Origin: a virus
Taxonomy: Duplodnaviria; Caudoviricetes
Reading direction: 5' to 3' (one strand)
Length of the DNA stretch: 64,000 nucleotides
IMG/VR virus record: IMGVR_UViG_3300037067_018433
The notes below the pieces were generated by a model. That model was not told the origin of the DNA, ran no database searches, and saw only the letters and a program-made list of their open reading frames with translations. How positions within the stretch are numbered: the first letter of the stretch is position 1; each line of letters begins with the position of its first letter. Positions 7,238 through 49,740 of the stretch are shown here, in pieces. A program made the translations under genes and the position numbers.

Positions 7238-7265
7238 TCTTATGCCGGTTTCGATCCCTGTTTTT
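7238..7265 (-). promoter_or_regulatory. phage-specific bipartite promoter motif, copy 1
   Basis: AAAAA-N14-GGCATAAGA on the minus strand, upstream of a minus-strand block. Confidence 0.65.
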
Positions 7266-7294: not shown

Positions 7295-8686
7295 ATGGAG
7301 CTTGGGGTTCGGCATCTTCGGAAGCTGGCGGAGTTCGCGCCGGGGCTCCCCAGCCGCTCGCGGTACGAGCCGTTGCCGTCGGTTACCGCGCCCAAGCCCT
7401 TCAAGCTGAACATCCAGCGGCACGTCGCCGACCGAGCCGGGGAGCACCTAGATCTTCGGTTGGTGGATCCCGACACGGGGCTCGCGCACAGCTGGGCGCT
7501 CAAGAAGTGGCCCGCTCCGGGTACCGGGACCTACGCCCCTCAACAGCCGACGCATGAAGGGGCGTACGCCGGATGGAGTGGTACGATCCCCACCGGTACG
7601 TACGGAGCTGGGACGGTTGAGAGCCAGCGGCTGGAGGACGCTGAGGTCATCCACAGTTCACCCAACGAGCTGCGCTTCAACCTGTACAGCGGCAAGATCC
7701 CCGAGCAGCTCGTGCTCAAGCGGACGTCGGGTGACCGGATGTGGGTGCTGCACAACGCCACGCCCTCACGCCACACGAAGCACTGGGCCGAACTGCTGCC
7801 GAACTACAAGCCCTCTCTCGGCCACGTGCAGTTCAAGGCGCTCGACCCTACCAAGTCCGACGAAATCTGGCAGCCCAAGATCGACGGGGCCCATGGCATC
7901 GTGGTAGCGGAAGGCGGGAAACCCGTCCGGCTGTTCTCCTATCGCGATGCCAAGAACGAGACTGGATTGATCGAGCACACGCACAAGCTGCCGGAGTGGT
8001 GGAAGAACGTGGCGCCCGCCGGCCTCAAGCCGACGGTGTTGCGCGCGGAGATCACCGGACGTGACTCCTCCGGTAAGCCGGTGCCCAGCGCCACCATCGG
8101 CGGCATCCTCAACGCCACCGTTCCCCACAGCCGCCAGATGCAGACGGATCAAGGGGTGAACCTGCGGCTCATCGGGTTCCGCGTGCAGCGGGAGGACGGC
8201 AAGGTCGTTCCGGACAACGCGCCGTACAAGCCGCAGTTGTCCACCATCCGTAGACTGGCCGCCGACATTCCCGTGCTCTACCCGATGCCGACCGCAGAGA
8301 ACCCCCAGCAGAAGGCCAAGCTGCTGGCGGATGTCGCCTCCGGCCACCACAGCCTCACCGGAGAGGGTGTGGTTGTGATCAAGCCACAGGGCACGTACAA
8401 GGCGCCCATCACCGAGACGCACGACGTCACCATCCGCAAGATTCTGCCGAGCATCAGGGAGGGGGAGGCCGGGGGTTTCGAGTTCAGCTGGGGCGATGGC
8501 CCCGTAGTAGGCGTGGTGGGCACCGGGTTCACCCACGCCCAGAAGCGCGAGATGCTGGCGAAGCCCGCGGACTGGGAGGGACGTGTGGTCAAGGTCACCG
8601 CCAAGCAGCGGTTCCCGAGCGGCGCTCTCCGCGGGGCGGCGTACGTCCAGGAGCACGAATCGAAGTCCCCGACGCCCTTTGGCTAG
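7295..8686 (+). CDS. LigD-type 3'-phosphoesterase fused to an ATP-dependent DNA ligase-like domain
   Basis: PE motifs IQRH..AGEHLDLRL, SWAL, PTH..Y..W.G.IP.G.YGAG.V; ligase motif I PKIDG, EGVVV, OB-fold VGTGFT. Confidence 0.8.
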   Translation: MELGVRHLRKLAEFAPGLPSRSRYEPLPSVTAPKPFKLNIQRHVADRAGEHLDLRLVDPDTGLAHSWALKKWPAPGTGTYAPQQPTHEGAYAGWSGTIPTGTYGAGTVESQRLEDAEVIHSSPNELRFNLYSGKIPEQLVLKRTSGDRMWVLHNATPSRHTKHWAELLPNYKPSLGHVQFKALDPTKSDEIWQPKIDGAHGIVVAEGGKPVRLFSYRDAKNETGLIEHTHKLPEWWKNVAPAGLKPTVLRAEITGRDSSGKPVPSATIGGILNATVPHSRQMQTDQGVNLRLIGFRVQREDGKVVPDNAPYKPQLSTIRRLAADIPVLYPMPTAENPQQKAKLLADVASGHHSLTGEGVVVIKPQGTYKAPITETHDVTIRKILPSIREGEAGGFEFSWGDGPVVGVVGTGFTHAQKREMLAKPADWEGRVVKVTAKQRFPSGALRGAAYVQEHESKSPTPFG

Positions 8687-11783: not shown

Positions 11784-11813
11784 TCTTATGCCAGATCCAA
11801 TAGGAGGATTTTC
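11784..11813 (-). promoter_or_regulatory. phage-specific bipartite promoter motif, copy 2
   Basis: GAAAA-N16-GGCATAAGA. Confidence 0.65.
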
Positions 11814-27783: not shown

Positions 27784-27812
27784 TCTTATGCCTATTTTGA
27801 TCTTTTATTTTC
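27784..27812 (-). promoter_or_regulatory. phage-specific bipartite promoter motif, copy 3 (heads the replication block)
   Basis: GAAAA-N15-GGCATAAGA. Confidence 0.65.
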
Positions 27813-32908: not shown

Positions 32909-34846
32909 ATGACCTATTCGACCCTGTCCCAGATGCAGAACATGGGCGCCAGCCGGATGCCCGGCTCGCAGATGATGCGCTACCCGAGCCCATACCTGGA
33001 CATCGGGAACACGTATTACCCACAGACCATCCGCGAGCTGCTGCAGCTCTGCCGGATGTTCTACTGGACGCATCCGCTCATCAGCGCCACGATCAACAAG
33101 CTGGCGCGGTACCCGGTTACTGATCTTACGTTCGCCCACAGCAAGTCCAATGCAGTCGCCGACTTCTGGCTGAACCTGATGTGTGACATCGTGCGCATCC
33201 GCTCGTTCTTGATCCGCGTGCACCTGGACACGCTAGCGTTGGGTAACGCCTTCGTGTCCATCATCTACCCGTTCAAGCGGCGACTGGTTTGCGGAAAGTG
33301 CAAGCAGAGCACCGACGCCAAGCTCAACTACGATCACTGGGAGTACATGGGCGGGAAGTTCGTTCTGGACTGCCCGCACTGCGGCCACCGCGGTCCGTCG
33401 ACGGTCGACGATGTCTACATCCGCTCCCCGCGCGATGTGCGCCTGCACCTGTGGGACCCGATGGACGTCATCATCGAGGACACCGACTACCCGGGCACCA
33501 CCCGCTACATGTACCGGATCCCCAGGAACCTCGGGAACTCCATCCGCCTGGGGAAGAAGGCGGTGGTCTGCCAGGTCCCCATGTTCTTCATCGAGGCCGT
33601 CGAGCGCTCGAAGATGGTCGTGTTCAGCGCCGACAACCTCTTCCACATCAAGCGCCAGGTGGTCAGCGGCAAGCACAAGGGCTGGGGCATGCCGCTCATC
33701 GCCAACGTCCTCAAGCTGGCGTTCCAGCTCCAGATCATGATGAAGACCAACGAGCAGATCATGACGGAGCACATGATCCCGCTGCGCTTCCTCTTCCCGC
33801 AGGCGCCGGGAGTCACGGCCGATCCGTTCAGCAACGTGTGGATGACCAACTGGAAGGCCAAGGTCGAGGAGGAGGTCCGGCACTGGAGACAGGACCCGAA
33901 CTACCTCCCGATCACTCCGCTGCCTGTAGGTGCCCAATCCATCGGCGGCGAGGGCCGCGCGCTCATGCTGAACGCCGAGATGCGCATGCAGCTCGAGATG
34001 ATCGTCGCGTCCATGGAGGTCCCGCAATCCTTCGTGTTCAGCGGCGGGAACTACACCGGGTCCATCGTCGACATGCGGCAGCTCGAGAACCTGTGCCTCG
34101 GTATGGTCGAGGACGACCGGGAGCTGGTGCGCTGGGTGATCGAGCACCTTGCGGCGTACCTCAAGATGCCGAAGCCCGAGAGCTGGCACTTCAAGCCGTT
34201 CAAGCAGGCGGACGACTTGACCCGCCGCCAGCTGTACATCGCGCTGTGGGATCGCGGGTTGGCCGACGGCCACGCGGTCTGTGCGATGAACGACCTCGAG
34301 TTCGACGCGGTCACCGACATGCGGAAGAAGGAAGCCAAGATCGACGCCGAGATCAAGGGTGAGCAAGCCAAGGCCGCGGCCACGGCCCAGGGGGAGGCGC
34401 AGATCACGGCCGCCAGGTTCCAGGTACGGGCGCAGGCCGCGGCGGCCCAGCAGATGAAGGCCCTGCAGCAGGGGCCGATGAGCGGGAGCACCCCACCCGG
34501 CGGCATCGGTGGTCCCCAGGAGACGGAGCAACCCACGCCGTCGACAGACGATCTCCTCCCCACCTCGGGCATCGAGTCGAACACCCGGTTCTTCGAGTCG
34601 GGCGACGGGCTAGCGGTTACCTCCGACGGGACGCGCGTACAGCCCGAGGCCCTCGCCCGCGGCTTCGCCTCGCAGCTGGCGGGCATGGATACCGCGCAAC
34701 GCGACCTGTACCTGTCGCAGTTGCAGGCGGAGATGCCGCAGGTGCACGGGCTGGTGATGCAGCACCTTTCAGGTCCTGCACCCGGCACCATCACGCAGCC
34801 GCTCCCCGAGCAGCGCCCGCCACGCGCAGAGCTCTCCACGATCTAA
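32909..34846 (+). CDS. portal protein with Zn-ribbon insertion
   Basis: HPLISATINKLARYP, LGNAFV, GWGMPLI, IPLRFLFP; size and position. Confidence 0.75.
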   Translation: MTYSTLSQMQNMGASRMPGSQMMRYPSPYLDIGNTYYPQTIRELLQLCRMFYWTHPLISATINKLARYPVTDLTFAHSKSNAVADFWLNLMCDIVRIRSFLIRVHLDTLALGNAFVSIIYPFKRRLVCGKCKQSTDAKLNYDHWEYMGGKFVLDCPHCGHRGPSTVDDVYIRSPRDVRLHLWDPMDVIIEDTDYPGTTRYMYRIPRNLGNSIRLGKKAVVCQVPMFFIEAVERSKMVVFSADNLFHIKRQVVSGKHKGWGMPLIANVLKLAFQLQIMMKTNEQIMTEHMIPLRFLFPQAPGVTADPFSNVWMTNWKAKVEEEVRHWRQDPNYLPITPLPVGAQSIGGEGRALMLNAEMRMQLEMIVASMEVPQSFVFSGGNYTGSIVDMRQLENLCLGMVEDDRELVRWVIEHLAAYLKMPKPESWHFKPFKQADDLTRRQLYIALWDRGLADGHAVCAMNDLEFDAVTDMRKKEAKIDAEIKGEQAKAAATAQGEAQITAARFQVRAQAAAAQQMKALQQGPMSGSTPPGGIGGPQETEQPTPSTDDLLPTSGIESNTRFFESGDGLAVTSDGTRVQPEALARGFASQLAGMDTAQRDLYLSQLQAEMPQVHGLVMQHLSGPAPGTITQPLPEQRPPRAELSTI

Positions 34847-34863: not shown

Positions 34864-34898
34864 TGGGGAGTCAGGCAGGTGGACTGCCTGACTCCCCA
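34864..34898. terminator. 15-bp perfect hairpin, probably a terminator between convergent units
   Basis: TGGGGAGTCAGGCAG-GTGGA-CTGCCTGACTCCCCA; A-rich tract at 34845-34854. Confidence 0.6.
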
Positions 34899-35308: not shown

Positions 35309-35338
35309 TCTTATGCCGAATTCCCCTATCCCCTTTTC
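35309..35338 (-). promoter_or_regulatory. phage-specific bipartite promoter motif, copy 4
   Basis: GAAAA-N16-GGCATAAGA. Confidence 0.65.
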
Positions 35339-35368: not shown

Positions 35369-38300
35369 ATGCCCGCTGTTCCCGGACAGACCAAGGTGCG
35401 CGCGGTCCTCGATCCGAACTCCGAGATGGAGGTAGTCAAGGACTCCGCTACCTCGGCCATGAACGACGTGTTCCCGATCGTCGGAAAGACACGAGAGCTT
35501 CGACTGGGCAACGTGCGGGTGGACGACACGCTGTCGTGGGATGATCTTCGTGGGCAGCTGGATGCCAAGCTCAACGAGAAGACGTGGGGCGTGCCGCTCA
35601 ACGGAACGCTGTCGTTGATCGACAAGCTGTCGGGCAAAGTCCTGGACAAGAAGGATGTGCGGCTAGCGGAGTTGCCGAAGCTGACGCCGCGTCTCAGCTA
35701 CCTGGTCAACGGCCAGGAGTATCAGCTGGACAAGCAGTGGCGCCTCAAGCCCGGGATCTACGCACGCGTGAAGGACAACGGGGAACTGGAGAGCCACATC
35801 AACGTGGCGGGCGGCGAGCGCTACGCCCTCAACTTCGACCCGACCAGCCGCCGCTTCATGTTCGACCACGCCGGATCAAGCATCCCGCTGTTCCCGATGT
35901 TGCGCGCGCTGGGTGTCGACGACAGCACGCTGCGGCTGTCTTGGGGCAAGGAGATCTACGACGCGAACGCCACCGAGAAGTACGAGGGCGCCATCCGCAA
36001 GTTCTACCGGGTGTCCACGGGCAAGGAAGCACCGTCCCTGGACGTGGCGGTGCAGCACCTGCGACAAACGCTGCCCGCCAAGGAGCTCAGCCCTGATGTG
36101 ACCGAGCACACGCTGGGCGTGCGCGTCGACCGGCTCAACGGACAGGCTTTGGCCCTCGCCTCGAAGAACCTGCTCAGCATCGCGCGTGGTACGCGAGAAC
36201 CCGACGATCGCGACGCCATCCTGTTCAAGAACCTGTTCAGCACCGAGGACTACGTCGGGGAGAAGATCCGGGTCATGGGCTCGGGTCTCCGCCGGCGCCT
36301 CACCAACACCATCGACCGCCACAACAACCTCGAGCACCTGGTGTACCCCGGCATGTTCGACAAGGCGGTGGCCAGCGTGTTCACGGAGTCCGCGGTCAGC
36401 CGCATCCCGACCCAGGACAACCCCGTCGAGATGCTCGAGGGCTTCAGCCGCACCACGATCATCGGGCCCGGGGCCATCGGCGACACGCGGATGGTCACGG
36501 ACGAAGCGAAGGCCGTGGACAAGAGCCACCTCGGGTTCCTCGATCCGATCGACACGCCGGAAGGCGAGAAGGTGGGCATCGCCAGCCACCTGGCGCTCGG
36601 CGTCTCCAAGAAAGGCAACGAGCTGTTCACGCCCGTGTACGACGTCCGCCAGAAGCGGATGGTGCCGATCAATACAGCCACCTTCTACCGGTCGAACGTC
36701 GCGCTGCCGGACAGCGTGCGCTGGGTCGAGCGCAACGGTACCAAGGTCCCCGAGGCCGTGGACAAGCAGGTGCGCATCGCGGGCCCCGGCAACGACATGG
36801 CCGACGTACCGTGGGACAAGGTGGACTACGTCATCCCCAACGCCGCCATGCTGATGGGCACGGGCACGAATCTGGTGCCGTTCGCCCAGAACAACTCGGG
36901 CAACCGCCTGTCGATGAGCGCGCGCCACCTGGGGCAGACCGTACCGTTGGTACACCGGGAAGCGGCGCTGGTGCAGTCCGCGGGTCCCGAGGGCAAGTCC
37001 ATGGACCGACTGCCTGGCGCGTTGACCGCGGCCAGTTCCCGGGTCGCCGGCGTGGTCACGAAGGTCGAGCGCGGCGCCATCCACATCCGGGATGCCGCCG
37101 GCAAGTCTCACACCCACCAGATCTACGACTACTTCCCGCTCAACGACAAGCGAACCGGGATCCATGCGGAGCCCGTGGTCAAGGTGGGCGACCACGTGAA
37201 GGACGGCCAGCTGATCGCGGATTCGTGGTTCACGAAGGATGGGCGCCTGGCCATCGGCGCCAACATGCGCACGGCGTTCCTCGCGCTGCCCGTGATGACG
37301 CACGAGGACTCGGTCGTCATCTCCGAGTCCGCTGCGAAGAACTTGGCGAGCTTGCATCTCCACCGGCACCAGTTCGTACCGGACGAGAACACCAAGGTGG
37401 GCAAGGCGCCGTTCGCCGCCTACTACCCGGCGCGCTACGGCAGCACCCAGCTGGACAAGCTGGACAGCGACGGTATCGTGCGCGAAGGGCAGAAGGTGGT
37501 GCCGGGGGATCCCCTGACGCTGGCCCTTCGCCCCCAGCAGTACACCACCGAGACCCAGGCCATCGCCCGGTTGTCCAAGTCCCTGGTCAAGCCGTATGCG
37601 GACACGTCCACGACCTGGGAGCAGGACGTGCCGGGGACCGTCGTCCGTGTGCACAAGCTGCCGGACGGCCGCGCGCACGTCGTGATCGCTACCGAAGAGC
37701 CCATGCAGGTGGCTGACAAGCTGAGCAACAGACACGCCGGCAAGGGCACCGTGGGCGCAGTCTACCGTGACGATCAAATGCCGAAGGACAAGAACGGCAA
37801 GCCGGTGGACATCGTCATGAACCCGTACGCCATCCCTGGTCGCCAGAACATCGGCCAGGTCTACGAGATGGCGGCCGGCAAGATCGCCATCAAGACAGGC
37901 AAGCCGTACATGACCCGCAACTACCAACCGGGCGTGGACTACGGCGAGCTGCTGCGGAAGGAAATGAAGGAACACGGGCTGGACGAGCAGGAAGAACTGT
38001 TCGACGCCCAGACCGGAGCGTCGTTGGGCAAGGCGCTTGTCGGGCCCATGTACATCCTCAAGCAGCGGCACCAGGTCGACCGTAAGATCCACGCGCGCGC
38101 CGGGGGCCCGGGGTATCCGTACGATATCGACCGGCAACCGCGGCGTGGCGGTGAAGGCGGAGCGCAGAGTCTCGGGGGGCTGGGGGAGCTGGCGCTGCTG
38201 GCGCATGGCGCACGCAGCATTCTGCGCGAGGCGCACAGCTCGAAGTCCGACATGGCGTCTCAGGATGAGATGTGGCGGGCCATCCAGCTGGGCCAGCCGC

Positions 38301-41300
38301 TTCCTCCTCCGAGACCGACGTTTGCCCAGAAGAAGTTCGAGGGCTACCTCAACACGCTCGGCGTCCGCCTGAAGAAGGACGGGACTCGCGTCCAGATGGT
38401 GCCGCTGACCGACCACGACACCCTGCGCATGAGCAGTGGGGCCCTCAGCAAGCCGAACCTCACGCTCAAGGGGCACGAGTTGATCCCGGAGACAGGCGGG
38501 CTGTTCGACCCCCATGTTACCGGCGGGCTCGATGGCGACCGCATGAGCCACATCCAGCTGCCGGAGTCCATCCCCAACCCGTTCTTCGAGCGCGGGGTGC
38601 TGGCGTTGACCGGCATGACCCAGGACCAGCTGCTGGATGTTCTGGGCGGCCGCCTGGCGGTGGACAAGGAGCGCAAGCTGGTCGCGGCCAAGACCCCCGG
38701 CTCCCGTACCGGGTCCGACGCCGTGGGTTGGATGCTCGACCAGGTGGACGTGAAGAAGGACGCTATCACCGTCCGCGCGCAGCTCCCCAAGTTGACGGGT
38801 ACCCAGCTGGACCGCTCCAACCGGAAGCTGCGGTATCTCGAGGCGCTGGATGAGGTGGGTCTCCGACCGCGGACCGCGTACATGACCAGCGTGATCCCCG
38901 TGCTCCCCCCGACCATGCGCCCGCTGACCGTGCTGCCGACCGGGGATCTCGCATCCGACCCCCTCAACGAGACGTACAAGGCTCTGGGCACCGTCGTCTC
39001 CAAGTACGAGGACATGGACCCGAGCCTTCCCGACCGCAGCCGTGGGCGCCTGCGCAAGGAGTTGTACACGTCGCTCTCCGCGCTTCAAGGAGTGGGCGCC
39101 GGCTACAAGCGCATCCAGGGGGGAGAAACCCAGGGCATCATGGATGTGTTCACGCAGCCGACCGCCAAGCACGCGTGGATCTTCCAGCACCTGTTCAAGC
39201 CGCGCCAGGACCTATCGGCGCGCTCGGTCATCACCCCGGATCCCGACATCACCATCGATGAGGTTGGCGTACCCCACCGCATCGCCACCGAGATCTTCAA
39301 GCCGTTCACCGTCCGCGAGCTCAGCCGCGTTGGGTACAGTCCGCTGCAAGCCGAGCAGATGATCAAGGCGAACGACCCGATGGCTGAAGCGTCCCTGCGC
39401 AAGGTGATGAGCGAGAAGCTGGTGCTCATGAAGCGGGACCCGGTGCTCCACCAGCAGGGCATTCAGGCGCTCAAGCCGATCATGCGCAAGGGGCTGTCCA
39501 TAACGATAAACCCTATGATTGCCGCGGGATACGGGGCGGACTTCGACGGAGATCAAACGGCGTTGTTCGTTCCCCAGTCGCCGGCCGCCCAGCAAGAAGC
39601 GCGGGGGATGCTACCGTCGGTCAACCTCCTGCACAAAGCGTCCGGGCGCCCGGTGTACGCGCCGACCAACGAAATGCAGCTCGGATTGTTCCGCGCCACG
39701 ACCATCAAACCCGACCCGCATGCGCCGAACTACAAGACAGTGGAAGAGGCGCTGGCCGCAGCTGTCGCCGGCAAGCAGAAATGGGGAACGATCAATGTTG
39801 GCGGGCGTGCGACAACCATGGGCCGCGTTCGATTGTGGGCCACGCTTCCGATGGACATGCGCAAGGACGCCATCCTGTACGACCCCAACGTGGTGTGGAA
39901 CTCCAAGGTCACTGGCGGGTTCCTCAAGCAGCTGGCCGAGACCCATGCCCCCGAGTACGCGGGCGTCGCGCAGAAGGTCATGAACCTGGGCGCGAGCAAC
40001 GTCTACGAGCAGGCCTTCAGCCTGTCGTTGAACGACTTCCGCACCGACACCCAGTCGAGGGACGCCGCGTTCCGCACGGCGAACTCCGACATCCGCAAGC
40101 TGCCGGCGACCCTGTCCAAGATCGACCGCGACTCCAAGACCGTCGGCATCTGGGTGAACGCCGGCGAGGCCATGGAGAAGGCGCACTGGGACAAGGTCAC
40201 GGCGAACCCCCCGCAGCTGGCGATGATGGCGCTGGCCGGGATCAAGCCATCGCGTGACCAGTACAAGCAGCTGGTGATGGCGCCCATGATCGTAGCGGGA
40301 ATCAAGGGCAAGCCCATCCCGGTGCCCGTCGGCCACTCGTTCAGCGAAGGGCTCACGACCTCCGACTTCTGGACCCAGGCGCAGGCCGCGCGTGTCGCGT
40401 CCATGCGCAAGACCCAGGAGGTCCGGGAGCCGGGGTACCTCTCCAAGCAGATCATCAACACCGTGGCCGATACCGTGGTGGCGTCCCGCGACTGTGGGAC
40501 AACCGAGGGTATCGCGATGGCCGTCGACCACCCGGACGTCACCGATAGATACCTGGCGAAGGCCGCGCCCGGGGCGGCTGCCGGGGGGCTCGTCACCCAG
40601 TCGCTTGTGGATCACTGGAGGAAGGAAGGGACGCAGTCGGTTGTCGTCCGTTCCCCGCTCAAGTGCAAGCTGCCGCAAGGGATCTGTCAACGCTGCTCAG
40701 GGCTGATGGGGGACGGGCATCTCCCTGGAATAGGTACCAATATCGGGGTCATTGCCGGACAGGCGCTTGGAGAACGATCAACCCAGCTTATGCTGAAATC
40801 GGTTCATTGTCTGCACGAGCACACGGTAGTTACCGTTCGTTGTAGGAAACGTGTTTGGAGCACCACCTTGGGGCGTCTGTACGAACGGTATGCCCCTACC
40901 ACTAGGGTTGGATCTGCTCCTGTTGACGACCTGTCGGTGTGGTCCAACGGGAAGTGGAACAAGATCCGTTCGGTGGTTTGCCACGAGCAAACACCCGGAA
41001 CAACCATGGTGATGCTCAAAACCCGCGCTGGAGGCTTCATCATCAGCCAGGACAACCACCCCCACATGTTGGCGGAGGCCCCGACTATCTGCGCGTGTGG
41101 AACGATTCCGAAACCTGAGAACGCCAAACGGCGGATCAGCGGTTGGTGGTGTAGGAAGTGCGGAGTTCGGGTAAAGGTGTTGGCTCCGTCTTCACCCGTG
41201 TTGGCAGTTGAGCCACGATCCATAGGACGTCGTACCCATAACGCCGTCCTTGTTCCCCCTCCTCCTGCTGATTGGGTTGGTGTTCCCCTACAGGACGGCT

Positions 41301-42805
41301 GGCTCGCTGGGATGTACGCAGCTGAAGGATGCGTACAGGTAATGTCGTACGACTACATGTGGAAGGACGGGGTGACCAAATCGAGGTACTCCTATCGTGT
41401 AGGCGTAGACATTGCCGAGCCGAAGGGGTTTCTGCAAAAGCGCGTCTTGCAGTCAGCAAAGCAGGAGCACCCACGCCTGCGGGTTACTCACGATAGCAGG
41501 AAGGTGCACTTCTACGACGTATCGACCGCTGCGTACTATGAGCGCTGTTTCGGCCGGTACGCTTGGAATAAAGGGCTTCCTGATGGGTGGACAGGCTTCA
41601 ACCGAAAGTGGCTTGGTGACTTCCTCGCTGGAATGATCGACGGCGATGGTACGGTATCGAGGAATCAAGAAAGCTGTTGGTACAATGTAGGGATCAGCAC
41701 GACCAGCGCCCTGTTGGCAGAGCAACTTCGTTGGATAGTGGAGCGCCTGGGTGGCTGTGCCCACGTCAACACTACCCCATGGAGGAAAAGCAAGATCAGG
41801 CGTAAGGATGGATCGATACGCCCGGTGGTATCCAAGCATCAAGGGTACATTGTGGGGTTCTCGTACACCGCACCCCTGGTGGGTTGGTTGGGTGAGTGCA
41901 CTAAGTTGGGCGGTATCCCTGCGCGAGAAAAAAACATCGAGCAGGCGCAACCCGAACTGGTGGAGTTCATACAGCCCATCCGTTTCTTGGAAACGCCTCT
42001 CGTGTATGATCTCGAGACGGAAGACGGCACGCTGGCCGCCAACGGTATCTGGACGCACAACAGTGGAGGCGTCGTGGGCAAGGGATCCGGGTCCTCGGCC
42101 ATCAACCAGTTCGACCGCATCGAGCACCTACTGCGCATGCCCAAGGTCATCCCGAACGCCGCGGTGTTGGCGGAGAACGAGGGGGTGGTCAAGTCGGTAC
42201 GTGCGGATCCCGCCGGCGGGTTCCGGGTAGGCATCGAGGCCCACGGGAAGCTGGTGGACCACCACGTTCCGGGTACGACTAAGCTGGCGCCCGACGTGCG
42301 CGCCGGGTATAGGGTGTCCGCCGGTACCCCGTTGTCGACGGGCTACATCAACATGCACGACCTCCTGCGCACGGCGGGCTTGCCCGCGGTCCAGAATCAG
42401 ATCACGAACGAGCTGGACGACATCTACCGGCCGCAGGGCATCCGTAGACGCAACGTCGAGGTCGTCGTGCGGGGCATCACCAACCTGGGCCAGGTCGAGG
42501 ACGCAGGCGGCCACGAGCACATGCGGCGGGGCGACATGGTCCCGCTGTCCGTGGTCCATGGGTGGAACGAGAGCCACAAGGATCACATCAAGGTGAGCCC
42601 GATGCTCAAGGGCATTGCGTTCGCACCGCTGGACCTCACCGAGGACTGGATGTCGAAGCTGCACCACGAGCGGCTCAAGGACACGCTGGTTGACGCGGCA
42701 CTCGAGGGCCACCAGGCCGACGTCGCCGGCCTGAACCCGTTCTCTGCGATCGCGTTTTCCCCGGGTTTCGGCACGGGGCTGTCCGGTAAGCCGGGGGCCT
42801 ACTGA
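35369..42805 (+). CDS. rpoBC: single-chain beta-beta' DNA-directed RNA polymerase, intein-containing
   Basis: beta motifs DTPEG, LVPF..NNSGNR.SM, HEDS, DKLSNRHAGKG, PSR-like PGRQNIGQ; beta' motifs PVLPPTMRP, R.VI.P, RDPVLH, catalytic GADFDGD, GYL, ALGE..TQL. Confidence 0.95.
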   Translation: MPAVPGQTKVRAVLDPNSEMEVVKDSATSAMNDVFPIVGKTRELRLGNVRVDDTLSWDDLRGQLDAKLNEKTWGVPLNGTLSLIDKLSGKVLDKKDVRLAELPKLTPRLSYLVNGQEYQLDKQWRLKPGIYARVKDNGELESHINVAGGERYALNFDPTSRRFMFDHAGSSIPLFPMLRALGVDDSTLRLSWGKEIYDANATEKYEGAIRKFYRVSTGKEAPSLDVAVQHLRQTLPAKELSPDVTEHTLGVRVDRLNGQALALASKNLLSIARGTREPDDRDAILFKNLFSTEDYVGEKIRVMGSGLRRRLTNTIDRHNNLEHLVYPGMFDKAVASVFTESAVSRIPTQDNPVEMLEGFSRTTIIGPGAIGDTRMVTDEAKAVDKSHLGFLDPIDTPEGEKVGIASHLALGVSKKGNELFTPVYDVRQKRMVPINTATFYRSNVALPDSVRWVERNGTKVPEAVDKQVRIAGPGNDMADVPWDKVDYVIPNAAMLMGTGTNLVPFAQNNSGNRLSMSARHLGQTVPLVHREAALVQSAGPEGKSMDRLPGALTAASSRVAGVVTKVERGAIHIRDAAGKSHTHQIYDYFPLNDKRTGIHAEPVVKVGDHVKDGQLIADSWFTKDGRLAIGANMRTAFLALPVMTHEDSVVISESAAKNLASLHLHRHQFVPDENTKVGKAPFAAYYPARYGSTQLDKLDSDGIVREGQKVVPGDPLTLALRPQQYTTETQAIARLSKSLVKPYADTSTTWEQDVPGTVVRVHKLPDGRAHVVIATEEPMQVADKLSNRHAGKGTVGAVYRDDQMPKDKNGKPVDIVMNPYAIPGRQNIGQVYEMAAGKIAIKTGKPYMTRNYQPGVDYGELLRKEMKEHGLDEQEELFDAQTGASLGKALVGPMYILKQRHQVDRKIHARAGGPGYPYDIDRQPRRGGEGGAQSLGGLGELALLAHGARSILREAHSSKSDMASQDEMWRAIQLGQPLPPPRPTFAQKKFEGYLNTLGVRLKKDGTRVQMVPLTDHDTLRMSSGALSKPNLTLKGHELIPETGGLFDPHVTGGLDGDRMSHIQLPESIPNPFFERGVLALTGMTQDQLLDVLGGRLAVDKERKLVAAKTPGSRTGSDAVGWMLDQVDVKKDAITVRAQLPKLTGTQLDRSNRKLRYLEALDEVGLRPRTAYMTSVIPVLPPTMRPLTVLPTGDLASDPLNETYKALGTVVSKYEDMDPSLPDRSRGRLRKELYTSLSALQGVGAGYKRIQGGETQGIMDVFTQPTAKHAWIFQHLFKPRQDLSARSVITPDPDITIDEVGVPHRIATEIFKPFTVRELSRVGYSPLQAEQMIKANDPMAEASLRKVMSEKLVLMKRDPVLHQQGIQALKPIMRKGLSITINPMIAAGYGADFDGDQTALFVPQSPAAQQEARGMLPSVNLLHKASGRPVYAPTNEMQLGLFRATTIKPDPHAPNYKTVEEALAAAVAGKQKWGTINVGGRATTMGRVRLWATLPMDMRKDAILYDPNVVWNSKVTGGFLKQLAETHAPEYAGVAQKVMNLGASNVYEQAFSLSLNDFRTDTQSRDAAFRTANSDIRKLPATLSKIDRDSKTVGIWVNAGEAMEKAHWDKVTANPPQLAMMALAGIKPSRDQYKQLVMAPMIVAGIKGKPIPVPVGHSFSEGLTTSDFWTQAQAARVASMRKTQEVREPGYLSKQIINTVADTVVASRDCGTTEGIAMAVDHPDVTDRYLAKAAPGAAAGGLVTQSLVDHWRKEGTQSVVVRSPLKCKLPQGICQRCSGLMGDGHLPGIGTNIGVIAGQALGERSTQLMLKSVHCLHEHTVVTVRCRKRVWSTTLGRLYERYAPTTRVGSAPVDDLSVWSNGKWNKIRSVVCHEQTPGTTMVMLKTRAGGFIISQDNHPHMLAEAPTICACGTIPKPENAKRRISGWWCRKCGVRVKVLAPSSPVLAVEPRSIGRRTHNAVLVPPPPADWVGVPLQDGWLAGMYAAEGCVQVMSYDYMWKDGVTKSRYSYRVGVDIAEPKGFLQKRVLQSAKQEHPRLRVTHDSRKVHFYDVSTAAYYERCFGRYAWNKGLPDGWTGFNRKWLGDFLAGMIDGDGTVSRNQESCWYNVGISTTSALLAEQLRWIVERLGGCAHVNTTPWRKSKIRRKDGSIRPVVSKHQGYIVGFSYTAPLVGWLGECTKLGGIPAREKNIEQAQPELVEFIQPIRFLETPLVYDLETEDGTLAANGIWTHNSGGVVGKGSGSSAINQFDRIEHLLRMPKVIPNAAVLAENEGVVKSVRADPAGGFRVGIEAHGKLVDHHVPGTTKLAPDVRAGYRVSAGTPLSTGYINMHDLLRTAGLPAVQNQITNELDDIYRPQGIRRRNVEVVVRGITNLGQVEDAGGHEHMRRGDMVPLSVVHGWNESHKDHIKVSPMLKGIAFAPLDLTEDWMSKLHHERLKDTLVDAALEGHQADVAGLNPFSAIAFSPGFGTGLSGKPGAY
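40808..42061 (+). mobile_element. intein (418 aa) with LAGLIDADG homing endonuclease
   Basis: Starts CLHEHT, ends VYDLET...GIWTHN before Ser; GWLAGMYAAEG and FLAGMIDGDG motifs; visibly lower GC. Confidence 0.93.
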
Positions 42806-43893
42806 TGGGCAACAGTCCTGCGTCGTCCGGGCTGCATGCCGCTCGAATCCTTCGCGCACGTGTCACCAACGTCGACACGCGACGGTACACGGTCGACGTG
42901 CAGACCGAGCAAGAGAACCGCGACTACCCCAACGTGCAGATCGGCTCTCCGATGTACCACTTCCTTGGCGAGGGCCAAGGTGGTCTTCCGGACATCGGGG
43001 CACGGTGTCTGATCGCCATACCGTCCGACGACACACCGCCCACCATCCTGGTGTTCCTGGACCTGCCGTTCATGGCGTCGCCCACCGAACTGGAGCAGGG
43101 TGGCGGATCGGACCTTCCACAGGCGGGCAGCGACGAGTACCAGATGTCGTTCGCCGGCGCCAAGCCCAAGTGCTTGCCGGGCGACTACTGGCTCATTGGA
43201 CGCGACGGCAACTTCTTCTTCCTCCGACGCGGCGGGACGATCCAGGAGGGGGCGAGTGCCTTCTGCCAGCGCATGTACCTCCGCCCGCGCAACGTCATCC
43301 GCGACTTCTGCGAGAACTACCTGCTGTCGACCGTGGGCATCGACTTGTTGCTGGAGAGCGAACGGGAGGCGGACAGCGATTCCGTAGATCTCGGAACGCA
43401 CCTCCGGCTCCAGGTCAACGAGCTGCTGGGGGACACCAAGGCCACGGTACTGCTGGAGGCAGGCAAGCTGGGGGACGACAAGGTCCTGCGGCTAGCGGTG
43501 GTCGAGGAAGGGATCGACCGCGCATCGGGGTCCTACGCCAACCCGGACGCCGAGTGGTCGGTCAAGAAGGATGGAACGGTCGACGGTGTGTTCGGTGCCA
43601 CGACGCTCGAGTACCAGTCGCTGGACGAGTCGGTGATCGGCAACCGTACGGAGACCATCCGCGGCCGTACATCGTTGAGCGCGCTGGACAGCAGCGAGGA
43701 CATCACGGGCACGAAGCGCATCGAGGCCACGACCATCCAGCTCTCGGGGAAGGTCATCTTTGGATCAGGGGCTCAGCCGATCTGCGGGAACGCCGACGCG
43801 TTCTACCAGTGGTGCCTCACCCATACGCACGACGCCAGCGGGGTGCCCGTTCCCCCTCCCCCTCCGATCGCTATCCGCAACGTCGTAGGCTAA
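42805..43893 (+). CDS. baseplate central spike (gpV/gp5-like)
   Basis: N-terminal OB-like ARVTNVD...LPDIGARCLI; beta-rich body; C-terminal HTH (HxH) apex motif. Confidence 0.65.
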   Translation: MGNSPASSGLHAARILRARVTNVDTRRYTVDVQTEQENRDYPNVQIGSPMYHFLGEGQGGLPDIGARCLIAIPSDDTPPTILVFLDLPFMASPTELEQGGGSDLPQAGSDEYQMSFAGAKPKCLPGDYWLIGRDGNFFFLRRGGTIQEGASAFCQRMYLRPRNVIRDFCENYLLSTVGIDLLLESEREADSDSVDLGTHLRLQVNELLGDTKATVLLEAGKLGDDKVLRLAVVEEGIDRASGSYANPDAEWSVKKDGTVDGVFGATTLEYQSLDESVIGNRTETIRGRTSLSALDSSEDITGTKRIEATTIQLSGKVIFGSGAQPICGNADAFYQWCLTHTHDASGVPVPPPPPIAIRNVVG

Positions 43894-44165: not shown

Positions 44166-44195
44166 TCTTATGACAGATCGAATCTGCCGGTTTTC
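44166..44195 (-). promoter_or_regulatory. phage-specific bipartite promoter motif, copy 5
   Basis: GAAAA-N16-GTCATAAGA. Confidence 0.6.
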
Positions 44196-47308: not shown

Positions 47309-47969
47309 GCGCGCAATGGATTTCCGGCGCATCGGTGGGGCGGCGGCCCCCGACACGCACGTGGTGTTCGACGATCGGTTCTACCTCGAGTACCTGAGCG
47401 CCGACGGCACGGACACCGTGTACCACCTGTTTGCGCTGCCGGAGTACACGGGGCCCTGGGCGCCACCCGACGGCATGAACTGGATGCGTGCGTCGTTGGA
47501 GGCGTTCCGCGTGCGCGCCGCGCTGCCCTATGAAGGAAGCAGCGCCTGGTGCCACGCGCAGTGGGACAGCGAGCCGCTTCCAGAGATTGTCCACTATGCC
47601 GTTCGACGCGTGGACGACATGGTGGGGGACTGGTTGGTATCGTTGGACATCGGGCCCGAGCGCATCACCGGCGGCGCGCTGCTGAAGAAGATGCAGGAGA
47701 AGATGTTCCCCGGCCGCTCGTTCTTCGCCGCGCGCATGGCGCTGCTGGATCGCTTCCGTTCGCAGACTGTGCGCGAGGTGCTGGCCGCCTTGGGTCAGCC
47801 GCTACCCGACGGCGCGGACATCGACGAGGAGCTGAAGACACCGATGGCCGCGCTGTTCCCGCTGCACCCCGGCATGTGGTACGTGCGGTTCCGCGAGCTT
47901 CAGAACCGAGTGACCGACCACAAGTTGCTGGCCGAGTCGTTCCTCGGTAGCCTGGTTCGCAGTGCTTGA
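47289..47969 (+). CDS. hypothetical protein
   Basis: AAGGAGGT SD; overlaps the TerL start. Confidence 0.65.
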   Translation: MDPKQAERAMDFRRIGGAAAPDTHVVFDDRFYLEYLSADGTDTVYHLFALPEYTGPWAPPDGMNWMRASLEAFRVRAALPYEGSSAWCHAQWDSEPLPEIVHYAVRRVDDMVGDWLVSLDIGPERITGGALLKKMQEKMFPGRSFFAARMALLDRFRSQTVREVLAALGQPLPDGADIDEELKTPMAALFPLHPGMWYVRFRELQNRVTDHKLLAESFLGSLVRSA

Positions 47970-49740
47970 TCACGCTGAGTTCGTGCTAGACCAGCCCGAG
48001 CCTGTTCTGGGCTCGGAGGCCGACGTTCGGCGCTTTGCTGGAAAGCCGATGGAGCTCCTGCCGTCGGAGTTCGTGGAGCTCAACTTCGAGTTCCCGGGTT
48101 ACGGCGCGTTCAGTTTTGAGGGACGTGAGTATCTACGTCCCATCTACGACTCAGATGATCAACTGCAATTGGTAGTCAGCGGCCGTCAGTGCGAAAAGAG
48201 CACTTTGCGCGGCGATCAGTGCATCCACTTTGCGGTGACCTACCCGGGCATCCGCGAGATGTACGTCACGCCTTCCGACCGTCAGACCAAGGACTTCAGC
48301 TTCGAGCGGTTGCGCAGCCCGCTGCTCGACAGCCCGAAGCTAGCGCGCTACATCAAGTCGTCTCAGGACCTCAGCGTCTACGACCCCGTCCTCACCATCG
48401 GCAAATCGACATCCGTCATCAGCCTCCGCAGCTGCTTCCTGCACGCGGACCGCGTCCGTGGTCGACGCGCGGACGTCCTGTTCATCGACGAGCTGCAGGA
48501 CATCCTGGCCGAGAACATCCCGGTCATCGAGCAGTGCGTGTTCCACGGGCGCCCGGACCTCAAGCTGATCTACTACAGCGGCACGCCCAAGACGTTCGAC
48601 AACCCGCTCGAGACCATGTGGTCCCAGTCCTCCACCATGACCGAGCTGATGTTCCCCTGCCGGCACCACGGGCTTCCGGGGGAACCGTGGACATGGCACT
48701 GGTTCCACATCACCCATGAATGCCTAGGGGACAAGGGGCTGATCTGTCCGAAGTGCGGTAAGCCCGTCCAATGGAATGATCCGAACGCCGTGTGGGTGGA
48801 CACTGCGACCAACGCCGCGGATCGCGACAAGCGGCCGGTCAAGGCCTACCACATTCCACAACCCGTCACGCCCATGGCGCACGATCCTGAGGGCAAGGCA
48901 TGGCGCATCCTCAAGCGGCAGCAGAAGGAATACCCCGCCTACCGGTTCTTCAACGAGGTCATGGGCGTCAGCTACGACTTCGGAAAGCGTCCGCTCACAC
49001 CGGCGGAACTCGCGCGCTGCTGCTACCCGGCGTGGGAAATGCGCCCCGATCAGCTCACCCACATGATGCAGCTATCGGGTGAGTACCCGGTGTACGCGGG
49101 CATCGACTGGGGTGGGGAGGAGTACGCGTACACGGTCATCGCGCTGGGCACGTACGCGCTCAGCCCCGACCCCAACCGCTTCTTCCAGTTCTACTGGCAC
49201 CGCTTCAGCGGCAAGGAGACGAGCCGCGAGGAGCAGCTCGAGCAGCTCTACAACTTGATCAAGGCGTTCCGCGTCCGGTACACGGTCGCCGACTACGGCA
49301 TGGGGTACTACGAGAACGACTGGCTGGTCCGGCGGCTAGGCGCCAGGAAGTTCGCCAAGATGCAGTACCTCGGCAAGCAGCAGGGTAAGATCGTGTGGCG
49401 TCCCAAGATCGGCTGGTTCACGGCGTACAAGAGCGCGGTGGTCCAGGACTACCTGGCGGCCATCAAGAAGGAAAAGATCGTGTTCCCCGCCTGGTCCTCG
49501 TTCGGCGACCCGTTCGGCCAGGACATGCTCAACCTGCGCGGGGAGTGGAATGAACGCCGGCAGGAAATGATGTGGGGGCACGGTGCCCAGCAAGCGGTCG
49601 ACTCGTTCCACGCGTCGCTCTACTGTCTGACCGCGTCGCTGCGTGACCACCCACGCCCGGACATCACCCACCTCACGGTGGACGACACCATCGTTGATCC
49701 TGAAGCGCTGGGAGAAGAAGTACCCTTCCGGCAGGTCTAG
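47962..49740 (+). CDS. terL: terminase large subunit
   Basis: Walker A GRQCEKST, RVRG, Walker B FIDELQD, SGTP, nuclease GIDWG, DYGMG, DSFHA. Confidence 0.9.
   Translation: MLDHAEFVLDQPEPVLGSEADVRRFAGKPMELLPSEFVELNFEFPGYGAFSFEGREYLRPIYDSDDQLQLVVSGRQCEKSTLRGDQCIHFAVTYPGIREMYVTPSDRQTKDFSFERLRSPLLDSPKLARYIKSSQDLSVYDPVLTIGKSTSVISLRSCFLHADRVRGRRADVLFIDELQDILAENIPVIEQCVFHGRPDLKLIYYSGTPKTFDNPLETMWSQSSTMTELMFPCRHHGLPGEPWTWHWFHITHECLGDKGLICPKCGKPVQWNDPNAVWVDTATNAADRDKRPVKAYHIPQPVTPMAHDPEGKAWRILKRQQKEYPAYRFFNEVMGVSYDFGKRPLTPAELARCCYPAWEMRPDQLTHMMQLSGEYPVYAGIDWGGEEYAYTVIALGTYALSPDPNRFFQFYWHRFSGKETSREEQLEQLYNLIKAFRVRYTVADYGMGYYENDWLVRRLGARKFAKMQYLGKQQGKIVWRPKIGWFTAYKSAVVQDYLAAIKKEKIVFPAWSSFGDPFGQDMLNLRGEWNERRQEMMWGHGAQQAVDSFHASLYCLTASLRDHPRPDITHLTVDDTIVDPEALGEEVPFRQV

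Follow-up and report, generated by a model that had tools for sequence, protein, structure and literature searches.

Our literature search for phage RNA polymerases (RNAPs) with fused beta and beta' subunits returned the Arash paper only, the 'moraphage' and PaBG papers being unrelated. In Arash (gp206 and gp216) and in the Vibrio phages D69, D148 and D181, beta runs into beta' through the same direct junction as in the enzyme described here. The Arash-like RNAPs also lack the beta' zinc-binding domain (GGLFD..TGGPEGQNWSH), and these phages likewise show portal-to-RNAP synteny, encode a small gp10-type sigma and have no alpha. However, they share only ~30% identity with the fused RNAP that we analysed, and the beta' of Arash and D69 is divided past the catalytic domain, giving a 1525-aa chain (beta with the N-terminal part of beta') and a separate beta' C-terminal chain of ~606 aa. 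The catalytic loop reads AADYDGD in Arash and D69 but GADFDGD in the fused RNAP. The Arash RNAP has no intein, and a homing-endonuclease gene is annotated in the RNAP-matching region of D148 and D181.

In cells, the rpoBC genes of Helicobacter and Wolbachia encode the two subunits in a single ORF, with the end of beta fused to the start of beta', and the beta and beta' termini meet at the fusion point in cellular enzymes. Cellular rpoBC fusions keep the zinc-binding domain, use alpha2, omega and host sigmas, and nest in their own phyla; alpha2 is thought to be needed in bacterial transcription as an assembly platform. To our knowledge, the alpha-less enzymes described from phages come in fragments, have diverged strongly and work without sigma. 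The RNAPs of phiKZ, AR9 and PBS2 are phage-encoded, lack alpha and omega, are resistant to rifampicin and have a copy in the virion that serves early genes (PMC7598289). They consist of four or five far more divergent polypeptides, occur as two sets of paralogues and lack a sigma, gp226 being used in its place in AR9. The crAss-like gp66, the TMP-fused vRNAP of P23-45 and YonO hold both double-psi beta-barrels in one chain and are virion-delivered where this has been shown; they are minimal and divergent, with no recognisable beta/beta' Pfam domains (PMC7481178, PMC10770324). Beta and beta' that align clearly with the bacterial subunits are found in the tailed phages of 100-300 kb that include mReC (Weinheimer & Aylward 2020, PMC7481178) and the Kleczkowskaviridae Rhizobium phages. 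The mReC enzymes branch outside cellular lineages (PMC7481178), like the fused family, but are encoded by separate beta and beta' genes, listed as two per contig. In the cultured counterpart of the mReC phages, a Rhizobium phage, beta' has retained the four-Cys zinc-binding domain along with an NADFDGD loop, and it joins the bacterial side of our tree.

The fused RNAP is the opposite of the phiKZ type: it is one chain, lies much nearer to bacterial RNAP (E 1e-72), occurs in one set only and comes with a true sigma70-family protein. Unlike gp66, the P23-45 enzyme and YonO, it keeps approximately the full bacterial beta/beta' domain set. The sequence-only reading had held that the class was already described. 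This holds only in part, as the published mReC enzymes have separate beta and beta' genes; furthermore, the mReC capsid (T4-type, PF07068) and terminase (PF03237) families gave no matches in the window, by which we mean the whole 64,000-nucleotide (64-kb) stretch of DNA analysed. We found no paper that takes the fused family past gene annotation.

A single-chain beta-beta' polymerase outside the sampled bacterial phyla

The window belongs to the ~200-kb genome of an uncultured phage. One ORF on its plus strand (35369..42805, with the TGA stop at 42803-42805) encodes an RNAP precursor of 2478 aa, which is reduced to 2060 aa when an intein is removed. Pfam searches placed the beta domains Rpb2_3 (E 6e-9) and Rpb2_6 (E 1.5e-52) in the N-terminal part of this ORF, followed by the beta' domains Rpb1_1 (weak), Rpb1_2 and Rpb1_5, and also detected LAGLIDADG_3. 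The ORF thus encodes a single-chain beta-beta' RNAP of a tailed phage, as had been read from the sequence. The beta module (35369..38383, plus strand; residues 1 to ~1005) is approximately colinear with a minimal bacterial beta of ~1100 aa (query 32-1000 against chain 35-1055) and keeps the flap-tip-helix region in the alignment to bacterial beta; residues 330-983 of the RNAP matched bacterial beta in the PDB at E 1e-72. Beta gives way to beta' at about residue 1008, close to the position near 38390 that had been proposed, and HMMER aligned residues 1002-1054 with residues 2-53 of Thermus beta'. The fusion junction (38303..38428, plus strand) has no linker, ..PPPRPTFAQKKFEGYLNTLGVRLKKDG being followed directly by TRVQMVPLTD.., and it is kept family-wide. 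The polypeptide holds the whole bacterial-type two-barrel catalytic core, with beta head-to-tail with beta'. Alignment with intein-less homologues gave a spliced length of exactly 2060 aa, matching the earlier estimate of ~2060 aa. The description of the enzyme as 'streamlined' stood in comparison with E. coli but not with minimal bacterial beta and beta', to which it is approximately colinear except for the zinc-binding domain.

The same protein was found, in identical form, in two or more independent assemblies, and the DNA was present in a landfill and a groundwater metagenome. An artefact of assembly is thus dismissed as the origin of the fusion, and an assembly chimera was likewise rejected. 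We also considered and rejected the reading of the ORF as a disrupted pseudogene. When 20 kb of DNA was compared with 50,697 phage records, Megablast returned no matches.

The four-Cys zinc-binding domain of the beta' N-terminus is missing, in line with the sequence-only reading. Residues 68-99 of E. coli beta' (32 residues, comprising this domain) are the sole large deletion relative to Salmonella and a Firmicute beta', and the segment at the site of the deletion, GLFDPHVTGGLDGDRMSHIQLPESIPNPFF (38498..38587, plus strand; residues 1044-1073), is free of Cys. The domain is absent from 129 of 129 family members, with a Cys-free segment in 125 of them. The second beta' Zn site (40493..40696, plus strand) is retained: C1709, C1766, C1773 and C1776 correspond to E. 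coli C814, C888, C895 and C898 and are kept in 125-127 of the 129 members. The catalytic Mg loop is GADFDGD, as previously noted (39533..39553, plus strand; residues 1389-1395). Its Asp triad (DFDGD) occurs in every one of the 129 members, while the loop opens with N in 104 members and with G in 24, so that the leading G is a sub-clade trait. Across these members, the catalytic core (DFDGD, the trigger-loop His and the Cys residues of the second Zn site) shows purifying selection.

The Rif cluster I equivalent, SRIPTQDNPVEMLEGFSRTT (36398..36457, plus strand; residues 344-363), was located by HMMER alignment to bacterial beta. In E. coli numbering it carries the changes Q513R, D516T, S522E, H526G and S531T; the first four of these positions had been named before, and S531 differs too. 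His occupies the H526-equivalent position in just 2 of 129 RNAP family members. From the sequence of this pocket, insensitivity of the fused RNAP to rifampicin is plausible.

The fused family is abundant in metagenomes; clustered at 50% identity, it falls into over 150 groups. Among 185,579 species genomes, the closest proteins were only 33-42% identical in the most conserved region and came from many phyla. We built an unrooted tree (LG+G4, quick search), in which phage branches were long. All 28 bacteria, from at least 15 phyla, formed one clan with a support of 100, and the fused family formed a separate clan, sister to Arash and D69, with a support of 97. The phylogeny, which had been suggested as a check, thus placed the RNAP outside all sampled bacterial phyla. 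Among solved structures, bacterial beta/beta' matched at E 1e-72, compared with 1e-29 for archaeal and eukaryotic enzymes.

A probable sigma70-family partner and the absence of alpha

At Pfam E<=0.01, none of the 65 ORFs predicted in the window matched a sigma, alpha or omega family, and a six-frame translation of the window showed no similarity to the sigmas of relatives, which agrees with the earlier observation that neither alpha nor sigma is recognisable there. By walking along the Logan contig that bears the RNAP gene, we located a sigma70-family protein of 250 aa (L023:7544-8296). Its gene belongs to the same phage genome and stands upstream of the RNAP gene at a distance of ~66 kb, not adjacent to it. 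The protein matched the Arash gp10 sigma family in hhalign with a probability of 99.8% (E 3e-28), and the profile of its family matched the structures of SigA, RpoS, SigF and FliA at E 1e-18 to 1e-11, the matches spanning regions 2-4 (profile positions 9-237). The lone sequence gave only a weak Pfam match to Sigma70_r3 (E 0.003), and a profile search from the gp10 sigma alignment missed the sigma of the RNAP-bearing phage. In addition, gp10-like sigmas were found in Arash, Vibrio phage D69 and the IMG/VR relatives G001 and G004. More than 110 sigma clusters were obtained, and the longest contigs of three of them were equal in size to RNAP contigs (109345, 135622 and 91353).

The beta' clamp helices, the usual docking site for sigma region 2, were placed by alignment at 38960..39118 on the plus strand (~residues 1198-1250). 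They are present, but in our reading of the alignment the equivalent of R275 is V and that of E295 is L. Since these two contacts are not conserved, any sigma binding would have to use a co-evolved surface. A complex prediction for the clamp-helix region (P0001:1100-1340) with the sigma-like protein gave a score of 0.28, the mark being 0.32. We infer that the fused RNAP binds this sigma, and that this small phage-encoded sigma70-family protein is the most likely source of its promoter specificity.

Alpha, searched as PF01000 and PF01193, was absent from Arash, D69 and three fragments, whereas the controls were positive in 14 of 14 genomes. Because complete relatives have no alpha homologue, alpha-independence of the fused RNAP is plausible. 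The covalent link between beta and beta' would then probably replace the alpha2 assembly platform, although host alpha could be recruited inside the cell.

Gene neighbourhood, probable virion packaging and competing readings

Directly upstream of the RNAP gene lies a portal protein gene (32909..34846, plus strand), whose product matched the Arash gp204 portal at E 2e-67 and IMG/VR relatives at E 3e-114; another search gave a weak match only. The order portal-RNAP is shared with Arash, D69, L004, L007 and L008, and has been kept across ~30% protein identity. The spacer between the two genes was scanned for a sigma70-consensus promoter and an intrinsic terminator, and neither was found. Downstream, the start of a 362-aa ORF (42805..43893, plus strand) shares a single base with the stop codon of the RNAP gene (TGATG); as a lead only, this ORF may encode a baseplate spike of the gpV/gp5 type. 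The large terminase gene (47962..49740, plus strand; phrog_675, E 8e-41) marks a head and packaging module in which the RNAP gene lies. Portal, RNAP, spike-like ORF and terminase thus form a late structural block, all on the plus strand, and the RNAP gene is also flanked by genes for a major head protein and a baseplate.

Arash is the only system with experimental data, namely virion mass spectrometry (PMC10585845). In the proteome of its purified virions, gp206 (beta and the N-terminal part of beta') ranked top with 3516 spectra, gp216 gave 1210 spectra, and the sigma gp10 gave 467 spectra with 100% coverage (PMC10585845). The RNAP spectra outnumbered those of the major capsid protein, and the authors cautioned that proteins abundant during infection could be contaminants of virion preparations (PMC10585845). 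Arash and D69 each have one RNAP gene set only. For the phage described here, inspection covered ~110 kb out of a genome of ~200 kb (the 64-kb window and ~46 kb of walked loci), and a protein search found no second P0001-like protein on a contig of the same size. Given the polymerase and sigma in Arash virions, the fused enzyme is most likely packed in the capsid as well, by analogy with this one proteome of a relative at ~30% identity.

We lean towards the explanation that the locus encodes a virion-carried, alpha-less and sigma-dependent single-chain RNAP. The enzyme, probably with its sigma, would be packed in the capsid and delivered with the DNA, and would transcribe phage genes without host RNAP, probably uninhibited by rifampicin. 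It is also conceivable, but in our view rather unlikely, that the fused enzyme is a middle or late polymerase that never enters the virion: host RNAP would make the early transcripts, including those of the RNAP and sigma genes, and the fused enzyme would then take over uninjected, in the manner of T7 RNAP or the phiKZ nvRNAP. The contamination raised by the Arash authors would suit this course of events, as would the fact that the virion data come from a relative. Furthermore, a bipartite promoter-like motif, AAAA-N16-GGCATAAGA, was found only at minus-strand (replication and accessory) genes, which could be a class for a different holoenzyme than the structural genes. A polymerase kept out of the virion is, however, harder to reconcile with an RNAP gene that stands within a co-oriented head/tail block, past the portal and overlapping the spike-like gene, and whose synteny with the portal has survived such divergence. 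The high RNAP spectra and complete sigma coverage in Arash (PMC10585845) and the single RNAP gene set of complete relatives also speak for a virion-carried enzyme.

The sequence-only reading had favoured independence from sigma, with an unknown specificity factor. An enzyme that works with a non-sigma factor or with none, like those of AR9, the phiKZ nvRNAP and crAss gp66, would explain why the 64-kb window holds no sigma and why the zinc-binding domain is absent and the sigma70-contacting clamp-helix residues are changed; other phage multisubunit RNAPs do use non-sigma factors (PMC7598289). Yet a sigma70-family gene is present in the same genome, accompanies the RNAP superfamily-wide and has its counterpart detected in Arash virion preparations, so that sigma-independence is unsupported, and the clamp helices and flap-tip region are kept; we regard it as improbable. 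Bacterial beta and beta' head the structure matches (E 1e-72 against 1e-29), as would be expected of a cellular rpoB-rpoC fusion on a bacterial contig, as in Helicobacter or Wolbachia, or of a host gene recently captured by a phage. This origin is scarcely credible in view of the phage genes on the flanks (portal, terminase, major head protein, baseplate), the identity of at most 42% to any of the species genomes in the most conserved region, the full support with which the tree parts the 28 bacteria from the phage clan, and the loss of the zinc-binding domain throughout the family. A bacterial contaminant as the source of the RNAP was rejected because of the phage flanks, the separation in the tree and the same low identity.

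A virion-carried, sigma-dependent enzyme thus remains our preferred explanation. In a more specific form, which we put forward tentatively, it is a complete two-polypeptide holoenzyme of bacterial type, specific for promoters and made of the 2060-aa beta-beta' chain and the 250-aa sigma, without alpha, omega or the zinc-binding domain, both parts being packaged and injected, and it represents a very large and ancient lineage with no described biochemistry. The fused family aligns domain by domain with bacterial RNAP, yet it is single-chain and alpha-less, with a sigma70-family factor. Should the prediction of activity hold, it would rank as the smallest sigma-dependent holoenzyme in nature and offer a tractable model for the roles of alpha and the zinc-binding domain, for the packaging and delivery of a folded enzyme of >220 kDa, and for phage escape from rifamycins and from control that targets host RNAP.

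An intein in the trigger loop

The RNAP precursor is interrupted by a class-1 intein with a LAGLIDADG homing endonuclease (40808..42061, plus strand; 418 aa, residues 1814-2231). The N-terminal half of the trigger loop, GERSTQLMLKSVH (40769..40807, plus strand), ends directly before it at the catalytic His, which is present in 129 of 129 family members. The C-extein (42062..42802, plus strand; residues 2232-2478) starts with Ser+1 and contains the remainder of the trigger loop (SGGVVGKG..) and the beta' C-terminal module. Compared with intein-less homologues of 2056-2063 aa (P0002-P0012), the intein is a single 418-aa insertion whose flanks align without gaps. The splicing residues are C1814, a QDNHP block with the block B His, and H2230-N2231 followed by S2232, and the endonuclease has two LAGLIDADG motifs, LAGMYAAEG and LAGMIDGDG. 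Pfam matched LAGLIDADG_3 (E 1e-7) as well as Hom_end (E 1e-4); the intein by itself gave no significant matches to PDB sequences.

As the intein splits the trigger loop directly past the catalytic His, the precursor is expected to be inactive. Protein splicing through Cys1, His-Asn and Ser+1 would join the broken loop into its canonical form (GERSTQLMLKSVH-SGGV) and give the 2060-aa enzyme; that the precursor does splice is predicted from these residues. It is a possibility that the intein acts as a post-translational switch, leaving the polymerase inert until spliced. The 29 inteins found at the same site are only 17-40% identical, with splicing and endonuclease residues that are invariant or nearly so. 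A dip in G+C to 0.60 coincides with the intein, and inteins are unusually dense in the fused RNAP family as a whole, where eight hot spots fall on catalytic motifs.

Architecture of the fused polymerase

The RNAP ORF (35369-42805, plus strand, 2478 aa) lies in a co-oriented plus-strand structural block that starts at ~29 kb, whereas the replication genes (family-A DNA polymerase, DnaB, UDG and helicases) occupy the minus strand at ~2.5-28.7 kb; G+C content over the 64 kb is ~65%. Pfam placed the beta domains Rpb2_3 and Rpb2_6 at RNAP residues ~349-927, the beta' domains Rpb1_1 (weak), Rpb1_2 and Rpb1_5 from residue ~1158 onwards and a LAGLIDADG domain at residues 2084-2135. When solved structures were searched with HMMER, residues 23-983 matched bacterial beta and residues 1002-1813 bacterial beta' (each E ~1e-72), while archaeal and eukaryotic subunits matched at only ~1e-29. 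The beta C-terminal helix continues into the beta' N-terminus without a linker at residue ~1008 (window ~38390), where a sequence-only reading had already put the junction. That reading also called the enzyme streamlined, which holds against E. coli (2749 aa), but the beta part is almost colinear with a ~1100-aa bacterial beta, and alignment with bacterial beta' showed that, apart from the C-terminal tail and the zinc-binding domain, little is missing.

Individual features were aligned with Salmonella (E. coli numbering), Acinetobacter and bacteria of five other phyla. Compared with Salmonella and with a Firmicute alike, the only large deletion removes beta' 68-99, the four-Cys zinc-binding domain whose absence had been claimed. 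Because the corresponding segment is Cys-free in 125 of 129 intein-free family members, the loss is, judged from these sequences, a family trait; it is common to Salmonella phage Arash and Vibrio phage D69, whereas the domain is still present in a Rhizobium phage whose beta' is a separate protein. The second beta' Zn site is kept. The catalytic loop reads GADFDGD, as previously stated, and its Asp triad is invariant in the family; since its first residue is N in 104/129 members and G in 24/129, the leading G marks a sub-clade. In Rif cluster I, the HMMER alignment confirmed the changes noticed earlier (Q513R, D516T, S522E and H526G) and added S531T. Across the family, only 2/129 members have His at the H526 equivalent, and 119/129 have Thr at the S531 equivalent. 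In bacteria, changes at these positions confer rifampicin resistance, and insensitivity of the fused RNAP is thus a fair inference.

No alpha or omega family match was found in the window, which agrees with the sequence-only reading as regards alpha. Furthermore, the alpha families PF01000 and PF01193 had no match in three fragments or in the complete genomes of Arash and D69, whereas control genomes were positive in 14/14 cases. Joining the two subunits covalently could plausibly take over the role of the alpha2 platform; that RNAP cores without alpha exist is shown by the phiKZ and AR9 enzymes (PMC7598289).

Alignment of seven sequences, including intein-less homologues of 2034-2063 aa, revealed one 418-aa insertion (residues 1814-2231, window 40808-42061), an intein over which G+C dips to 0.60. 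Its removal leaves 2060 aa, matching the ~2060 aa estimated before. The intein splits the trigger loop directly after an invariant His (..LKSVH/C...THN/SGGV.., slashes marking its borders). Although 29 same-site inteins from relatives share only 17-40% mutual identity, all retain the splicing residues (Cys1, block B His, terminal His-Asn, and Ser/Thr at +1) and the two LAGLIDADG motifs with their acidic residues, which indicates from sequence that they would be active splicing and homing elements rather than decaying inserts. In 96 of the 98 relatives longer than 2200 aa, 149 insertions were mapped; they concentrate at some eight hot spots, each at a conserved motif; 45 adjoin the DFDGD loop and the trigger loop holds 33. 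In the numbering of the 2478-aa precursor (P0001), the hot spots in relatives P0005-P0387 lie at ~400, 620-640, 790-820, 950-960, 1050-1060, ~1400, ~1780 and ~1820. Some relatives carry at least three inteins, with proteins of up to 4739 aa.

Family and phylogenetic placement

A word-indexed search recovered single-chain proteins falling into >110 clusters at 90% identity; they measure 2030-2160 aa, or 2400-3700 aa where inteins are present, and their contigs reach 213 kb. An exhaustive search with clustering at 50% identity gave >150 representatives (E<1e-117), and the beta' part of almost every one begins at residue ~985-1020. The identical RNAP protein was found on Logan and ENA assemblies, the largest carrying contig being 203,683 bp, and its DNA is present in one landfill and one groundwater metagenome. 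The closest cultured phages, at ~30% identity, are Vibrio phages D69, D148 and D181 and Salmonella phage Arash; in these, by contrast, beta and the N-terminal part of beta' form a 1525-aa chain and the C-terminal part of beta' is a separate ~606-aa protein.

One genome from each of 185,579 species was queried with the most conserved beta' motifs. Only ordinary rpoC genes were recovered (33-42% identity), scattered over Acidobacteriota, Chloroflexota, Saccharimonadota, Pseudomonadota, Bacillota, Actinomycetota and others; no close cellular copy or prophage of the fused RNAP was found among these genomes. A maximum-likelihood tree was built for the beta' part (LG+G4, quick search; 58 rows, 1027 columns); it is unrooted, has long phage branches and uses a simple model. 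In it, all 28 bacteria (at least 15 phyla) fell on one side of a branch with SH-aLRT 100. The 27 fully fused sequences formed one clan (97), sister to Arash/D69 (100), and the Rhizobium phage lay on the bacterial side. Because bacteria and the fused family separate, nesting within a bacterial clade was not observed in this tree.

The class had been taken as already described. This is correct for RNAP-encoding Caudovirales in general, but the supplement of the paper on that group (mReC) gives beta and beta' as two genes on every contig, and its text mentions fusion for crAss-like phages only (PMC7481178). The mReC marker families for capsid (PF07068) and terminase (PF03237) have no match in the window. 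We found no paper describing the fused, zinc-domain-less family; the Arash paper merely annotates gp206 (beta plus the N-terminal part of beta') and gp216 (the C-terminal part). The enzyme is a new architecture among phage-encoded multisubunit-type RNAPs: fully fused, without alpha and the zinc-binding domain, with a sigma, and intein-rich. Its family is large and uncharacterised, with the Arash virion proteome as sole experimental anchor.

A Candidatus Paceibacterota MAG (DATJQA010000076.1) contains an ADFDGD-bearing open frame of 2022 aa in a 7.6-kb locus, which may represent a cellular fusion of beta and beta' or else an unusually long beta' of this CPR bacterium.

Sigma factor and candidate promoters

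As the sequence-only reading had noted, no sigma was found in the window, either by family search of predicted ORFs or by six-frame comparison with the relatives' sigmas. However, sigma70-region-2 proteins are encoded by Arash, D69 and one IMG/VR relative. Arash gp10 is a sigma of 234 aa with homologues in D69 and two fully fused IMG/VR phages; its family comprises >110 clusters, and the largest contigs of three of them are the same size as RNAP-carrying contigs. By walking along the Logan contig on which the RNAP gene lies, we located the phage's own sigma70-family gene (250 aa) at 7544-8296 of locus L023, ~31 kb before the window start in the same genome. It aligned to the gp10 family with 99.8% probability (hhalign, E 3e-28, 35% identity over 217 columns), and regions 2-4 of SigA, RpoS, SigF and FliA structures align with the family profile. 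The gene lies in a plus-strand block upstream of tail/baseplate genes and adjoins genes for glycine-zipper and InPase-domain proteins.

The clamp helices and flap-tip are the usual sigma docking sites. Both regions are present in the RNAP, although specific sigma70-contact residues differ. Taken together, a sigma in the same genome and the retained docking regions mean that the proposed sigma-independence is not supported; the earlier observations were confirmed, but their interpretation is only partly supported. The L023 sigma is likely the specificity factor of the fused RNAP.

Glycine-zipper proteins precede this sigma, and the InPase-domain gene follows directly (L023:8296-9774, plus strand, 492 aa, InPase E 2e-21), all in the plus-strand structural block. 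Relatives also encode a second sigma70-type protein of larger size (L010/L107, Arash gp196; L011, D69; L013, IMG/VR G002), which passes the Pfam Sigma70_r2 cut-off; its open frames are 262-380 aa and the gp196 CDS is 345 aa.

We also detected a bipartite promoter-like motif of fixed spacing, AAAA-N16-GGCATAAGA, with the wider form (G)AAAA-N16-G(G/T)CATAAGA. Exact copies lie at 7238-7246, 11784-11792, 27784-27792 and 35309-35317 and a copy with one mismatch at 44166-44174, every one on the minus strand, and the genes they precede are all minus-strand genes. By our own estimate, base composition alone would give ~0.2 exact copies, against four observed; at one mismatch, a shuffle control was not significant (7 observed vs 5.7 expected). 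The two-box layout of this candidate promoter fits sigma-type recognition. The copy that lies between the portal and RNAP genes is oriented away from the latter.

Gene neighbourhood and probable virion role

The ORF immediately before the RNAP gene (645 aa) encodes the portal, with matches to Arash gp204 (E 2e-67) and to metagenomic relatives (E as low as 3e-114), and the portal-RNAP order is kept in Arash, D69 and three metagenomic relatives (L004, L007 and L008). In Arash virion preparations, gp206 has the most spectra of any protein (3516), gp216 has 1210 and the sigma gp10 has 467 with 100% coverage (PMC10585845); gp196 is absent from the displayed list of virion proteins. In addition, Arash and D69 each have only one RNAP gene set. 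These results collectively favour a virion polymerase, which would be made late, packaged with sigma in the capsid and injected to begin phage transcription. An enzyme that stays out of the virion and acts in middle or late transcription is the less likely rival.

Downstream, a 362-aa ORF (42805-43893, plus strand), whose ATG overlaps the RNAP stop (TGATG), had no Pfam or PHROG match; ESM Atlas features and structure suggest, as a lead only, a resemblance to baseplate spike proteins of the gpV/gp5/VgrG type. The terminase gene is found 5 kb past the RNAP stop. A perfect 14-bp hairpin (GGGGAGTCAGGCAG-GTGGA-CTGCCTGACTCCCC, 34865-34897), 19 nt past the portal stop, is flanked by the portal gene and a small ORF on the minus strand and was missed by the terminator scan because it lacks a T tract. 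Upstream of the window in the same genome (L017/L022) are very large tail/baseplate genes of 1503 (weak Baseplate_J), 1473, 934 and 910 aa, and the ENA assembly of the phage stops within the 1503-aa gene.
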